Shown here piece by piece: positions 4,527 through 25,071 of a stretch of 62,902 nt of DNA. The notes beneath the pieces are model-generated. The model made no database searches, was not told where the DNA came from, and saw nothing but the letters and a program-made list of their open reading frames with translations. The number at the start of each line of letters is the position of its first letter. Position 1 is the first letter of the stretch. The DNA comes from a virus (taxonomy: Duplodnaviria > Caudoviricetes). The DNA is taken from positions 1 to 62,902 of the IMG/VR virus record IMGVR_UViG_3300037245_001879, one strand, 5' to 3'. The position numbers and the translations under genes were made by a program.

Positions 4527-4955
4527 ATGAAAAATTCATTTTTAATATTAGGACTAATTTTAGCCTTAAACATTTCGGCTCAAACAAAATTACGTGATAC
4601 CGGTAAATTCTTTGCACTAGGTAGACAATATGATACTTTAGTGGCCTCGCAAACTCTAAACTATGATTTAGAGTTAGGTGATGATGTGTATGGTGTTATG
4701 ACTATAGCTGTTGAATCAGATACAGTATCCGGAACATCTGCTTATTCTTCATATTTAATGAAATCAATGAATGGTGAAGACTATGTGCCTGTTGACACGA
4801 TAGCACACACTGGTGGTAATCCTGATTATGGAGAATTTGACCCCGTGAACACTACGCATCCTTATTGGCGTATCAGTACTGTTGCCACAGCTACGGCTCA
4901 AAGAAGCTTCTTAAAACTTTGGGGTCGAGTCGATAAACGTGTTATAATTCAATAA
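4527..4955 (+). CDS. Signal-peptide-bearing beta-rich protein (candidate capsid decoration)
   Basis: ATG at 4527 gives MKNSFLILGLILALNISA|Q. The mature part is beta-strand rich with three D(S/T)x sequons. Confidence 0.65.
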   Translation: MKNSFLILGLILALNISAQTKLRDTGKFFALGRQYDTLVASQTLNYDLELGDDVYGVMTIAVESDTVSGTSAYSSYLMKSMNGEDYVPVDTIAHTGGNPDYGEFDPVNTTHPYWRISTVATATAQRSFLKLWGRVDKRVIIQ

Positions 4956-4976
4956 ATAATAATTGTAAGATAAATT

Positions 4977-5010
4977 AAAAAGGGAGTCAGTAATACTAAC
5001 TCCCTTTTTT
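4977..5010 (+). terminator. Rho-independent terminator
   Basis: AAAAA-GGGAGT...ACTCCC-TTTTTT. Confidence 0.8.
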
Positions 5011-5023
5011 TAAAACAATACCA

Positions 5024-21310: not shown

Positions 21311-22743
21311 AAAAGCTCATAGTTTTAATAGCAGTTATATTAATATCTTTTAATATTGACGCTCAATTAAGAGAATTAGAGTGTGGAGATTTAACGGATA
21401 CAATTATTGATAGAGTCAATGATAATGATAGTTATCTTGAAGGATTAATTACTCCAAATACTACTTTCAGAACTACACCTAGTACGGTTATTGATGCAGG
21501 TACTGGTCTAGAATGGTCTGGTAATACTTTAAATGCAACTGGAGCTGGTTCTGGAGATTTAGTAGCAGCCGATTCAGGAGATACTTACCAAACCCCACAT
21601 GCAATTGATAGTTTATTGGAATCTAAAATAGATACAGCTAATACAAGATTAATTGTTAATGTAGCTATGCGGGATTCACTCACATTTCTTTCTGATTCAA
21701 ATACATACAATACAAATGGATATATTACAAGATTTTGGGCAGAAGTAAATTTAGGAGGAGGTTCTTCTTTTGATTCTGTTCATGTTTATGCTTATATTGA
21801 TTCATTAAATTCTATTAGAGTTACCAGAGAAGATTCAATAATTTTAGCCCATACAGAAGATGTAGATGCTATTTGGGAATTTTTAGGTGGAAGACCCCCT
21901 TTATTTATATCATGGGAAGTTGGTATATATAATGACTCAATACTTCTTGGAATAGCTGATGCTAATTTTCACTCAGATAGTACTCCCCCGGTATCATCTT
22001 TTGATTTAACAGAAGATGGAACTGTTTTTGGCATTAATACTGTTAGGGTAAATTATGATTCCGTGTTTCTACCATTAGACTCAACTATAAGTTCAAATAC
22101 AGATTTATTATTGAGTTATACAAAGGGGGATACGGTATTACAAGACAGCAGTAACAGAGAAACCCCGTCTTTCGTCAATAAAACAGTAACAAATAATGTA
22201 ACTGGGCCTTCTTTCCACTCAGATGATTTTAACAGTTATTTAAACGGAACGGCTTTGGCTGGACAAGGTGATTGGGTACAAGGCACCGGAGTTATGACTT
22301 GTAATGGATCTGCAATATATCCAAATTCGACGGGCGATATTTTCATATACCATAATCAAACATCAGGTATTAATCAATTTTCTCAAATTAATACTACTGG
22401 AGTTAGTTCAAGAGGTATGGGAGTCGGAGTTAGAATGTCTACAGATGGGCAGAATGGATATTTTTATATTAATGAGAACGGAAATACTATTTGTTATAAA
22501 ATTGTAAGTGGTGTCGAGACTCAATTAGGTATTAATAGTGGCTCTGGAAATGAATTTACAACGAGAATAGAAGTTTCAGGGAACACAATATCATGTTATA
22601 TTGGTGGTGTTTTAGATACCGGTTTAACTGGTGGCACGGGTCAATTTACTGATTCTGATTTAAGTTCAGGTTATACTGGTGTTGCTGGAAATAATGATAG
22701 TTCAATCAAAACTGGAGATGATTGGGAAGGTGGAAATTTATAA
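21307..22743 (+). CDS. Signal-peptide-bearing fibre/adhesin-like protein (SwmB-like Ig plus C-terminal lectin-like sandwich)
   Basis: MKKLIVLIAVILISFNIDA|Q. LSYTKG..LQDSS..F.N.TVTNN resembles SwmB, and the FHSDDFN...GYTGV C-terminus resembles ConA-like folds. Confidence 0.65.
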   Translation: MKKLIVLIAVILISFNIDAQLRELECGDLTDTIIDRVNDNDSYLEGLITPNTTFRTTPSTVIDAGTGLEWSGNTLNATGAGSGDLVAADSGDTYQTPHAIDSLLESKIDTANTRLIVNVAMRDSLTFLSDSNTYNTNGYITRFWAEVNLGGGSSFDSVHVYAYIDSLNSIRVTREDSIILAHTEDVDAIWEFLGGRPPLFISWEVGIYNDSILLGIADANFHSDSTPPVSSFDLTEDGTVFGINTVRVNYDSVFLPLDSTISSNTDLLLSYTKGDTVLQDSSNRETPSFVNKTVTNNVTGPSFHSDDFNSYLNGTALAGQGDWVQGTGVMTCNGSAIYPNSTGDIFIYHNQTSGINQFSQINTTGVSSRGMGVGVRMSTDGQNGYFYINENGNTICYKIVSGVETQLGINSGSGNEFTTRIEVSGNTISCYIGGVLDTGLTGGTGQFTDSDLSSGYTGVAGNNDSSIKTGDDWEGGNL

Positions 22744-22758
22744 AATAAAAATATAATC

Positions 22759-25071
22759 ATGAAAAAATTATTAATATCAATTGGCATCATATTATATAGT
22801 ATAATTGGTAGTTCCCAAACTAATTATTATGTAGATGCGGTTAATGGAGATGATGGTAATTCAGGAACATCTACTGTGGACGCTTGGAGAACTATAAATC
22901 AAGTTAACTCAACTACATTGCAACCGGGAGATTCTGTTTTATTTCATTCAGGTATGACCTGGCGAGAAAGTTTAAATATAGAAGAAAGTGGAACCTTATC
23001 TGATTGGATTTATTTTGGTACTTATAATGGCAGCTCTAATGCTAGGTTGTATGGATCAGAGAGATTGTCTGGATGGACTGTTACTGGCACATCTAATATT
23101 TGGCAAGTAGTTACATCTTTAAGTAATCCACGAACAACATATCCTGCTGAAATATTTTTTATAACAGATGATTCTGCATCTTGGGGTGATTATCAATCTT
23201 TTGATGCTGGATTTTCTCAATTAATAAATGAATTTGACTGGACAATCAATGGAACTACTTTTTATATTTTTTCAACCTCTGATCCAGATAATGCTTATGA
23301 TAGTATAGAAGCCCCTCAAAGAAATTCTATAATTTTTATGGATGATGGTAGCCCTGAAGATTATCACAAATTTGAAAATTTAACCTTAAAGTTTTCAAAA
23401 AGAGAAGGTTTTAGAGCTGGATATCCGGGATATAATGCTAATGGTCAAGTGTTTCGAGACAATACTATAGGATATATTGGACAAAAAGGTTCTGCAACAG
23501 GTTATGGAATATCTACATGGCATTCAGATGCTATAATTGAGAATTGTTTCTTTTCAGATTGTGGTCGTAGGGCAATATCATATAACTTATATCTTGATAG
23601 AGGATTTGATGATCGAAGATTAATAAGTGAAGTATTCATTCGCAATAATACTTTTAAAAGGGGTCAACATACTACCTCATTTGATCTGGCTTCAACCGGA
23701 GACAGGGATTTTACAGAGAGATCAGATACTATGTGGAATTTTTATTTTTACAATAATATTATAGATGATACCGAAATCCTTATGAACGCTGAGGATGAAT
23801 CTTCTAATCAATTATTTACACAGAGAGGTGGGATTATATTGAAAAATATTTATATAGTAAATAATGTTTTTCGATCTGCTACGGCACGAAATCTCTTGTT
23901 AGAGATTACAGATAGTAATTACGTCTGGTATAATACTATAGTAGGCCACAATCCAAATGGAATATCTAGCCCCTATTCTAATATCAGTTTTAATTCCTCT
24001 ACAAATAATTATTATCAAAACAATATACTTTATCAGAATTTACCTGCTTCCCCAGCACTATTGAATTATGGAGTATTGATGGAACATACACCATCTAATT
24101 ATTTAAATAGAGATTATAATCTCTATTGGCAAGAAGTTGTACAAACAGACCGTACTTTTACAGGAGGACTACATGGTTATTATAACATAAACAACTGGTC
24201 ATCCTATCAGTCCGCAAATCCCACGTTTGATGCTAATTCACCAACGCCAGCAAATCCTTTATTTGTAGATTATTCATCTGGAGATTATAGATTAACAGAG
24301 AGTTCTTCTGCGGTTAGTGCTGGTACTTACTTAACACATATAGCAACTGATGTAGAAGGAAAAATTGATACTATAGGTAAATATGATATTTTAGGTAATT
24401 TAAGGAACCCCATTACCCCCTCTATAGGCGCATACGAATTTACATCTATAGACAGTGCTGCTTCTCATATTTTATCATTTATTATTCCTGAGCAAGTAGG
24501 ATTAACAGGTATCGATACTATTGCAGATACTGTGGCTGTAAGTATGCCGTATGGTACAAACGTGACATCTTTAACTCCAACAATAATAACATCCCCAGGT
24601 TCTATTATAAATCCAGCCAGTGGGGTTCCGGAAGATTTCAGTAATCCTGTAGTATATACGACAACAGCAGCTAATGGAACAACTCAGTCTACTTATACTG
24701 CAACGGTGTACGTAGTTGCTCCTAGTATAGAAACAGATATATTAACACTTATAATTCCGGATCAAATAAATAGCTCTTTAAATGCAACAAACCATACCGG
24801 AGTAGTAAATATGCCGTTCGGAACTGATGCTTCAAGTTTAATTGCTGATTGGACATTATCTACAGGAGCAACTTCTGTTCCAAATACAGGAACAGATCAA
24901 AATTATAGTATTCCTTTTAATATAGTAATTACTGCTGAAGATGGGACAACTGAACAAACTTGGACTATTACAGTAAATGTAGCTTCTCAACGAACTGTAA
25001 TATATTGGATGTTTACTGATGACACAATTGGAGAATATTCTAATGGTGAAAGATCTGTTGAATATGAATAA
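22759..25071 (+). CDS. Signal-peptide-bearing right-handed beta-helix protein (candidate depolymerase) with two DUF5018-like Ig domains
   Basis: MKKLLISIGIILYSIIGSS|QTNYYVDAVNGDDGNSG..AWRTI, parallel beta-helix Asn ladders, DYRL..SSAV.AG..PSIGAYEF, and two MP(Y/F)GT..TA.(N/D)GT repeats. Confidence 0.75.
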   Translation: MKKLLISIGIILYSIIGSSQTNYYVDAVNGDDGNSGTSTVDAWRTINQVNSTTLQPGDSVLFHSGMTWRESLNIEESGTLSDWIYFGTYNGSSNARLYGSERLSGWTVTGTSNIWQVVTSLSNPRTTYPAEIFFITDDSASWGDYQSFDAGFSQLINEFDWTINGTTFYIFSTSDPDNAYDSIEAPQRNSIIFMDDGSPEDYHKFENLTLKFSKREGFRAGYPGYNANGQVFRDNTIGYIGQKGSATGYGISTWHSDAIIENCFFSDCGRRAISYNLYLDRGFDDRRLISEVFIRNNTFKRGQHTTSFDLASTGDRDFTERSDTMWNFYFYNNIIDDTEILMNAEDESSNQLFTQRGGIILKNIYIVNNVFRSATARNLLLEITDSNYVWYNTIVGHNPNGISSPYSNISFNSSTNNYYQNNILYQNLPASPALLNYGVLMEHTPSNYLNRDYNLYWQEVVQTDRTFTGGLHGYYNINNWSSYQSANPTFDANSPTPANPLFVDYSSGDYRLTESSSAVSAGTYLTHIATDVEGKIDTIGKYDILGNLRNPITPSIGAYEFTSIDSAASHILSFIIPEQVGLTGIDTIADTVAVSMPYGTNVTSLTPTIITSPGSIINPASGVPEDFSNPVVYTTTAANGTTQSTYTATVYVVAPSIETDILTLIIPDQINSSLNATNHTGVVNMPFGTDASSLIADWTLSTGATSVPNTGTDQNYSIPFNIVITAEDGTTEQTWTITVNVASQRTVIYWMFTDDTIGEYSNGERSVEYE

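Follow-up and report, generated by a model that had tools for sequence, protein, structure and literature searches.

Tailed-phage assembly is taught as a purely cytoplasmic process. Among other phage proteins, the lysis proteins (lipoprotein spanins and secreted or signal-anchor-release (SAR) endolysins) are late products that cross the inner membrane by Sec, and the coat proteins of filamentous phages (pIII, pVIII) are virion proteins that carry signal peptides and mature outside the cytoplasm. In Bacteroidota, Gln at position +1 is cyclised to pyroglutamate on the periplasmic face, a pattern called the Q-rule (PMC5837995). Matrishin et al. (2023) reported five Q-rule genes of unknown function in temperate prophages of Porphyromonas gingivalis (PMC10367356). 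Here we analyze IMG/VR record IMGVR_UViG_3300037245_001879, a Caudoviricetes virus of 62,902 nucleotides (this whole stretch is called the window below), in which five genes, SP1 to SP5, encode proteins with a predicted Sec leader followed by Gln. Our results suggest that these proteins are exported and O-glycosylated by the host and, more tentatively, that some of them join the phage particle.

A preliminary description of this DNA had singled out the five genes for leaders of the signal peptidase I (SPI) type with Gln at +1, and our analysis confirmed the leaders and the Gln as well as the start and end of each gene. All lie on the + strand: SP1 (142 amino acids (aa), 4527-4955, leader MKNSFLILGLILALNISA/Q, ending NISA/Q), SP2 (1310 aa, 17098-21030, MKKIILLLAILVPISLFG/Q, ending SLFG/Q), SP3 (91 aa, 21035-21310, MKKLILIPLIFISISIFA/Q, ending SIFA/Q), SP4 (478 aa, 21307-22743, MKKLIVLIAVILISFNIDA/Q, ending NIDA/Q) and SP5 (770 aa, 22759-25071, MKKLLISIGIILYSIIGSS/Q, ending IGSS/Q), where the slash marks the predicted cleavage site. 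Each protein starts M-K-(K/N) and continues with a hydrophobic stretch of 13-15 residues; positions -3 and -1 are small, and +1 is Gln. A leader heuristic (K/R in the n-region, no D/E, and a Kyte-Doolittle value of at least 2.4 over 10 residues) was positive for 10 of the 88 open reading frames (ORFs) of the window genome; the five named genes also qualified on inspection by eye. In 5/5 named genes the hydrophobic core runs straight into a small-x-small-Q motif, located at residue 19 or 20. Anywhere in residues 16-32, this motif occurs in 5 of 78 non-leader ORFs of the window and in 6/110 in phage G002, described below. The leaders thus have the look of working Bacteroidota Sec/SPI signals and not of chance sequences. 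The absence of a type IX secretion system (T9SS) C-terminal domain and of a lipobox, also stated previously, held for all five proteins: no sorting domain of type A (PF18962/TIGR04183) or type B was found (Pfam E<=0.01; NCBIfam E<=1), and by eye no lipobox Cys stands at the end of any of these leaders (one is present elsewhere, at 38219). No autotransporter (type V) Pfam match was obtained for SP1-5 either. By eye, the first mature residues of several proteins are alike: QTKLRD in SP1, QAKLRK in SP2, and QSEIKRD and QTTIKRD in the SP2 homologs P0080 and P0083.

The preliminary description had made its proposal depend on conservation of the leaders among homologs, which we observed in the SP2, SP4 and SP5 families. 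Nine SP2 homologs have in common a C-terminal domain of ~420 aa under variable N-terminal parts; a leader is present in 8/9 and Q at the predicted +1 in 7/9, and P0085 is leaderless. Two more members of the family come from metagenome loci L010 and L011, with leaders ending KS/Q and LG/Q, and an 865-aa gene of L009 (FG/Q) was left out of the count, as it has the same starting residues as P0079. Leader and Q are present in both relatives of SP4 that were found, a 653-aa protein of G002 (FS/Q) and P0076 (SA/Q). All 11 SP5 homologs inspected have a leader, with Q at +1 in 4/11.

Leader+Q genes were also found in phages with other backbones. In the complete 74.8-kb genome of G002, which has no match to the portal or capsid protein of the window, four consecutive leader+Q genes (158, 1233, 653 and 929 aa) sit between the gene of a 2146-aa protein and holin-like plus amidase genes. 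L009 carries three leader+Q genes between tail proteins and endolysin. The myovirus-like L010 (sheath, tape measure, baseplate hub) and L011, which encodes a baseplate wedge protein, have one leader+Q gene of the SP2 family each, after the baseplate genes. Of three leader+Q genes in L078, two encode small proteins and lie directly after the capsid gene, and the third, for a SASA-esterase protein of 561 aa, precedes the lysis genes; SP1 is weakly akin to one of the two small proteins (E 4e-5). Two lineages with unrelated backbones, G002 and L078, carry similar predicted leader+Q genes ahead of lysis genes.

A second line of evidence comes from glycosylation sites. Bacteroidota O-glycosylate noncytoplasmic proteins only, at the sequon D(S/T)(A/I/L/V/M/T); occupancy of these sites is almost complete, and noncytoplasmic proteins of the phylum are enriched in the motif (PMC12871550). 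The same motif is given in PMC8550257. We counted D[ST][AILVMT] against composition-preserving shuffles of each protein. Observed and expected numbers were 3 vs 0.8 for SP1, 23 vs 7.8 for SP2, 1 vs 0.1 for SP3, 12 vs 3.2 for SP4 and 9 vs 4.1 for SP5, which pools to 48 sequons vs 16.0 expected (z 8.6), an excess of about threefold. The sites are spread along the proteins in varied contexts and do not belong to one repeat. Control motifs in the same proteins (E[ST]x, N[ST]x, the reversed motif, D[ST] followed by a non-hydrophobic residue, and D[AG]x) occurred at 0.39-1.33 of expectation.

The excess follows the leaders. The 12 leaderless virion proteins of the window hold 9 sequons vs 16.9 expected. 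Counts for single leaderless proteins were 3 vs 5.7 for a fibre-like protein (5328-8507, +), 1 vs 3.0 for an 865-aa protein (14124-16721, +), 1 vs 1.6 for the portal, 5 vs 8.7 for a 3085-aa protein and 1 vs 0.4 for a 124-aa protein (16721-17095, +). In G002, the four leader proteins hold 82 sequons vs 19.0 expected (z 15.3), and seven leaderless proteins 9 vs 12.9. Within the SP2 family the ratio is 2.35-3.39 for each of P0078-P0083, 0.89 for the leaderless P0085 and 0.54 for P0086, in which the leader is ambiguous. The 73 mostly bacterial homologs of SP5 have a pooled ratio of 1.78. In a survey of 80 phage loci, many of them near-duplicates, so that the counts are not independent, the ratio was 1.06 for 1262 leaderless ORFs, 4.56 for 71 leader-like ORFs without Q and 4.09 for 16 leader+Q ORFs. 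The leader-bearing proteins thus carry the compositional signature of evolution in the Bacteroidota periplasmic pathway, which their leaderless neighbours and cousins lack. As a marker that needs no structure, the sequon excess here parts exported (4.1-4.6-fold, 87 ORFs) from cytoplasmic (1.06-fold, 1262 ORFs) phage proteins.

Could the leaders be unused for export, as relics of host genes or as hydrophobic pro-segments of the capsid type, on proteins that fold in the cytoplasm like ordinary fibres? The major capsid protein (MCP; 2117-3634, +; SU10_MCP, E 7.5e-26) gives this explanation some weight. It must assemble in the cytoplasm and yet has a K-rich start followed by a hydrophobic segment of ~15 residues (MKQIIKILFIALFALFAV...), which is conserved in the closest relative of the window, G001 (84% overall identity), and present in the cultured Bacteroides phage BKO1-TP3. 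This segment could be a membrane tether or a pro-segment; capsid "signal peptides" were also seen in P. gingivalis prophages, where cleavage by the prohead protease was suggested (PMC10367356). A hydrophobic N-terminus alone is therefore no proof of export, and SP5 clearly has common ancestry with host genes. However, the MCP has no Gln at +1, and its sequons (5 vs 2.4 expected) belong to a family with a pooled ratio of just 1.35. The case for export of SP1-5 lies in the combination of Q at +1, found in 5/5 genes and in most homologs of the phage-specific SP2 and SP4 families, with a 2.3-4.3-fold sequon excess confined to leader proteins and absent from the leaderless P0085 and from leaderless fibres. 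We consider unused leaders very unlikely. Judged from these sequence features, export of the five proteins is highly likely and, given export, their O-glycosylation is probable.

Where the exported proteins act is less clear-cut, and their genomic position is the first guide. Bases 1-127 of the window are an exact repeat of 62776-62902, and the IMG/VR record (G+C 30-37%) likewise lists direct terminal repeats, with an estimated completeness of 100%; the window is therefore a whole Bacteroidota phage genome of ~62.8 kb. As the preliminary description had it, SP2 to SP5 are contiguous, and they lie in the tail-fibre locus, between the gene of the leaderless 124-aa protein and holin-like and amidase genes. 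From gene end to gene start, the spacing in this block is 2, 4, -4 (an overlap) and 15 nt. No intergenic promoter-like or terminator-like site was found in the block, predicted promoters and terminators being at the level of shuffles.

In G001, whose 894-aa counterpart is 52% identical to the 865-aa protein of the window, the same locus holds a single leaderless protein of 888 aa with a C-terminal GDSL esterase (phrog_5240 "tail fiber protein", 1.5e-41). Leader-bearing proteins and leaderless fibres have several modules in common: a domain of the tail protein of Pelagibacter phage HTVC010P, which SP2 matches over 213 residues (96-308), GDSL esterases, and ETDPIF repeats, found in the leaderless fibre of the window and in the leader+Q 653-aa protein of G002 (3e-5). 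SP2 further has putative Asp-box repeats and an all-beta C-terminal domain, whose AlphaFold2 (AF2) model has a mean predicted local distance difference test (pLDDT) score of 68.7. Foldseek comparison of this domain with the PDB gave TM <= 0.18; against BFVD, a single hit was a real relative, namely a marine-virus protein that is uncharacterised (TMq 0.54), with every other hit at TM <= 0.24. We considered this domain as an autotransporter translocator and rejected the idea, as there is no autotransporter Pfam match and no PDB match reaches TM 0.2, and the domain also occurs in the leaderless P0085. A 129-residue match of SP2 to the 1233-aa protein of G002 (E 1e-4 in a single comparison) was not taken as kinship.

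The 124-aa protein is composed of two modules. Its N-module (residues 3-46) matches the N-terminus (~46 residues) of the leaderless 888-aa tail fibre of G001, and also residues 21-64 of P0081, directly after the leader of that protein (55% identity, 3e-15); a search with the N-module returned only G001. Its C-module (47-121) matches an 81-aa protein of L011 encoded just upstream of the SP2-family gene (40% identity, 2e-20), so that this module adjoins an SP2-family gene in two different backbones. The nearest Atlas clusters of the C-module are viral proteins of 73-87 aa, and its leads to fibre-tip families are weak. No N-terminal particle-binding domain was recognised in SP2-SP5; the N-module resides on the separate 124-aa protein and, in P0081, behind the leader. 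These features make the 124-aa protein a candidate adaptor or stub fibre. Fusion of its gene with SP2 by frameshifting is unlikely, because the SP2 leader is canonical and the same pattern occurs in four other genes. Complex prediction for the 124-aa protein with SP2 residues 20-140 and with the SP2 C-terminal domain returned no answer (score 0.00), which speaks neither for nor against binding.

Attachment to the virion is supported by the tight packing of these genes in the late operon, the fibre of G001 at the same locus and the shared fibre modules, as well as by the N-module behind the P0081 leader and the C-module beside an SP2-family gene in two backbones. On this evidence docking is possible, at somewhat under an even chance.

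The individual domains point in more than one direction. Fibre, adhesin or depolymerase domains had been attributed to SP2-SP5 in the preliminary description. This was confirmed in part. SP5 has DUF5018 above the Pfam cut-off; the BNR/Asp-box matches of SP2 and the SWM_repeat of SP4, its sole domain match, were below threshold, and SP3 had none. SP1 and SP3 gave no Pfam, PHROG or NCBIfam match, and none of the five proteins matched a PHROG. The gene of SP1, a small protein rich in beta structure, stands after the head genes and ahead of the leaderless fibre; in the Atlas, viral hypotheticals of 136-142 aa form the clusters nearest to SP1, which has no significant similarity to the 158-aa protein of G002. 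The C-terminal ~300 aa of SP4 are common to leader+Q proteins of G002 and P0076 (34% identity, 2e-39). The AF2 model of SP4 was unusable (mean pLDDT 40.1).

SP5 belongs to a beta-helix family; its beta-helix begins at about mature residue 3 and is followed by Ig-like DUF5018 repeats. Its 73 homologs lie mostly on bacterial contigs, and 28 of them carry the T9SS domain PF18962. Among eight genome loci of the family, six are in Bacteroidota metagenome-assembled genomes (MAGs) and the others in a Spirochaetaceae MAG and a Chitinispirillaceae MAG. Homologs without the T9SS domain (P0002, P0004, P0024 and L005 8945-11734) end in short C-terminal tails such as KYNGHFIVF, RYNGKFIVY, GKIMRYKGKILMYKGKIIK and GGKVGVYGGKIGIIK, where bacterial homologs have PF18962; the C-terminus of the window SP5 differs from these tails.

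SP5 thus looks like a host secreted enzyme, with the beta-helix right after the leader and no phage-type anchor domain, and this brings in a serious rival to docking. The proteins may be late secreted factors, an alternative already named in the preliminary description: exported and glycosylated, they would never reach the virion, and would be kept in the periplasm as esterase, beta-helix glycanase or lectin-like binders until lysis sets them free. On debris they could remove or cover receptors; other possible effects are loosening of capsule or biofilm and conditioning of neighbouring cells. Leader+Q proteins with GDSL or SASA esterase domains in L009 and L078 agree with this explanation, which also poses no topological problem, and the leaderless fibre (5328-8507) that the phage retains might be sufficient alone. 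On the other hand, free factors would not readily account for a cassette in the tail-fibre position that is ~8.2 kb long in the window and 8.9 kb in G002, for fibre repeats and a fibre N-module in leader-bearing proteins, or for the swap of the locus with a leaderless tail fibre in G001. Among six leaderless late proteins of G002 that were scanned none matched a fibre family, and neither did its four leader proteins. We regard release as free factors as a real possibility, held with somewhat less than even confidence.

The place of the cassette beside lysis genes, in the window as in G002, L009 and L078, might instead reflect a pre-lysis role in the envelope of the infected host, in superinfection exclusion, receptor masking or as an accessory to lysis. 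Modification of the host outer membrane by Q-rule phage proteins was proposed in PMC10367356. This role fits poorly with very large multi-domain fibre-like proteins (478-1310 aa) and with a late-operon position, which is neither that of an early gene nor that of a moron; moreover, having neither lipid anchor nor T9SS domain, these proteins cannot take the known routes to the cell surface. We consider it improbable.

Several further observations weigh against export followed by docking. To our knowledge, no mechanism has been described for joining periplasmic proteins to tailed-phage particles. The preliminary description had proposed the 124-aa protein as docking adaptor; the sharing of modules with the fibre and the SP2 family agrees with this, but the adjacency of C-module and SP2-family gene holds in only two of four contexts and fails in L009 and L010. 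The leader+Q homolog P0084 has no sequon excess (0.66), and, the homologs being related, pooled z-scores of families overstate their independence. A hydrophobic N-terminus is found in 112 of 150 MCP family representatives. The trait is also rare: among the 80 phage loci, which were anchored on the amidase family, 14 have any leader+Q ORF, and in a single one such an ORF reaches 300 aa or more. BKO1-TP3, a cultured Bacteroides phage with a distantly related portal, has fibres that are leaderless and poor in sequons. Cultured relatives with proteomics were sought by tblastn in 50,697 phage records, and none useful was found. In these records the portal retrieved 3 distant Bacteroides phages, SP2 the pelagiphage domain only, and SP5 2 matches spanning just 7-9% of the protein; the MCP, 653-aa and 1233-aa proteins of G002 had no match. 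P0081 was not found among viral contigs, nor the SP2 family among genome contigs.

Taken together, we propose the following sequence of events. SP1-5 would be expressed late, together with the virion genes, as proteins of fibre, adhesin or glycan-enzyme type, and would leave the cytoplasm by the Sec translocon of the host. Cleavage by signal peptidase I would expose Gln, which host glutaminyl cyclase would cap as pyroglutamate (PMC5837995; PMC10653852), and the general O-glycosylation system of the host would load glycans on the D(S/T)(A/I/L/V/M/T) sites. With neither T9SS domain nor lipid anchor, the proteins would be held in the periplasm until lysis by holin and endolysin. At or after lysis the fibre-type members (SP2, probably SP4 and SP1) would bind the particle built in the cytoplasm, the leaderless 124-aa protein being, by comparative anatomy, the likeliest bridge. 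The outcome would be receptor-binding appendages that are matured by the host, coated with glycans and protease-resistant. As a whole, we advance this scheme tentatively as the best explanation, with a little under half of our confidence. Its extension to a set of Bacteroidota tailed phages is more doubtful still. In these, a part of the apparatus for host recognition would take shape outside the cytoplasm: fibres and small decoration-like proteins, exported by Sec, capped with pyroglutamate and heavily O-glycosylated with the glycan of the host, would join finished, DNA-filled particles through leaderless adaptors such as the 124-aa protein once the holin has opened the inner membrane.

Were docking true, it would amount to a new, two-compartment assembly pathway with a coat of host glycans; we know of no precedent for either in tailed phages. 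Fibre-type proteins would have a periplasmic maturation route that comprises pyroglutamate capping, O-glycosylation and possibly disulfide formation. A host-glycan coat, on particles or on co-released enzymes, would bear on stability, on immune and lectin recognition and on host range, and there would be consequences for the prediction of receptor-binding proteins in Bacteroidota viromes.

The remaining late genes of the window lie on the + strand in the following order. An acidic scaffold-like protein (1236-2093) precedes the MCP, and a 256-aa protein is encoded between MCP and SP1. Between SP1 and the leaderless fibre lies the gene of a 96-aa protein (5024-5314). This fibre-like protein of 1059 aa (5328-8507) matches phrog_9729 tail fiber (E 8e-12) and contains a Lactonase/SGL beta-propeller. 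It is followed by several small proteins and the portal (12025-14124; P22_portal, phrog_156). The stop of the 865-aa gene, next in order, overlaps the start of the 124-aa gene; the 865-aa protein has no Pfam or PHROG match, and the name "nozzle" is that of the preliminary description only. The 96-aa protein is one of a conserved group of ~95-103 aa encoded before fibre genes in three backbones (L011 5376-5663 and L001 88-399 besides the window); the window and L011 proteins match with E 2e-10, and the likeness to G001 was noted by eye. Possible functions are those of a chaperone or of a small protein associated with the fibre.

Downstream of SP5, the lysis region (25093-27021, +) encodes an 84-aa protein with a single transmembrane segment, an Amidase_2 endolysin (25379-25801; E 5.4e-17), a composite ORF (25701-26645) and a 116-aa protein with multiple transmembrane segments. 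The composite ORF combines a transmembrane segment, a very basic stretch, a second leader-like segment (...FCFSAKT/Q) and a beta-rich C-terminal part, and L009 encodes the counterpart of its N-terminal part as an 84-aa ORF of its own. The composite ORF may comprise two genes or be a spanin analogue. Small lipoproteins with a lipobox, extremely rich in sequons, occur in many lysis cassettes among loci L022-L101, where their genes lie a short way downstream of the amidase (e.g., L038 10406-10843). A lipobox-like Cys motif is present in 31 of the 71 leader-like ORFs without Q, and the examples listed lie just downstream of the amidase. These 31 ORFs hold 113 sequons in 4805 aa, some with 8 sites in 145 aa, and spanin-like proteins of Bacteroidota phages may be glycoproteins.

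Outside the late region, a predicted lipoprotein of 124 aa (38219-38593, +) is encoded among early or middle genes; its leader ends MTS/C, followed by TDAD, which makes it a candidate surface lipoprotein, for example for superinfection exclusion. The 3085-aa protein (52277-61534, -) is a polyvalent protein with ART-PolyVal (E 1.1e-13) and InPase (E 4.8e-52) domains, and in BKO1-TP3 a 5553-aa "DarB-like" protein adjoins the portal. An Ala/Lys-rich ORF of 137 aa (100-513, -) contains an imperfect 45-nt repeat family in 7 copies (357-497).

A full-text search of the literature, which included the accessible parts of PMC5723332 and PMC6199706, yielded no account of signal-peptide-bearing or O-glycosylated tail fibres in tailed phages. 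Nor, in the text thus covered, did we find an account of leader+Q cassettes at the tail-fibre position in several backbones, of their fibre modules, of the sequon excess or of the two-module 124-aa protein. The word "phage" is absent from the O-glycosylation review PMC12871550.

The closest described genes are those of the P. gingivalis prophages (PMC10367356), in which predicted SPI cleavage likewise exposes Gln, read there as adaptation to the Bacteroidota secretion pathway. They belong to temperate phages and were proposed to modify the outer membrane, whereas the genes described here form contiguous cassettes at the tail-fibre position of apparently lytic phages and additionally have fibre modules, a strong sequon excess and a candidate adaptor. 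Ordinary tail fibres and tailspikes, such as the G001 fibre and the HTVC010P tail protein, resemble the SP proteins in genomic position, modular shuffling and modules (N-module, ETDPIF repeats, pelagiphage domain, GDSL/SGNH esterase or beta-helix enzyme domains), but have no signal peptide, fold in the cytoplasm and are not enriched in sequons (3 vs 5.7 and 8 vs 6.2 expected). The Bacteroidota T9SS cargo with beta-helix and DUF5018 is 40-45% identical to SP5 over most of its length and starts with a Sec leader as well. Its PF18962 sorting domain is lacking at the end of the phage SP5, which therefore cannot use T9SS.

Spanins and SAR endolysins take the same late Sec route, and the leader-like ORFs of the 80 loci are likewise sequon-rich; these lysis proteins are small and act on the envelope, in contrast to the SP proteins, which include large fibre and enzyme types and have SPI sites and no lipobox. 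Filamentous phages differ in that they assemble by extrusion through the membrane, whereas the portal, terminase and capsid of the present phage must complete filling in the cytoplasm. Q-rule phage genes as such were already known, and it is the combination of cassette position, fibre modules and sequon excess that appears new relative to tail fibres and to Sec-exported late proteins.

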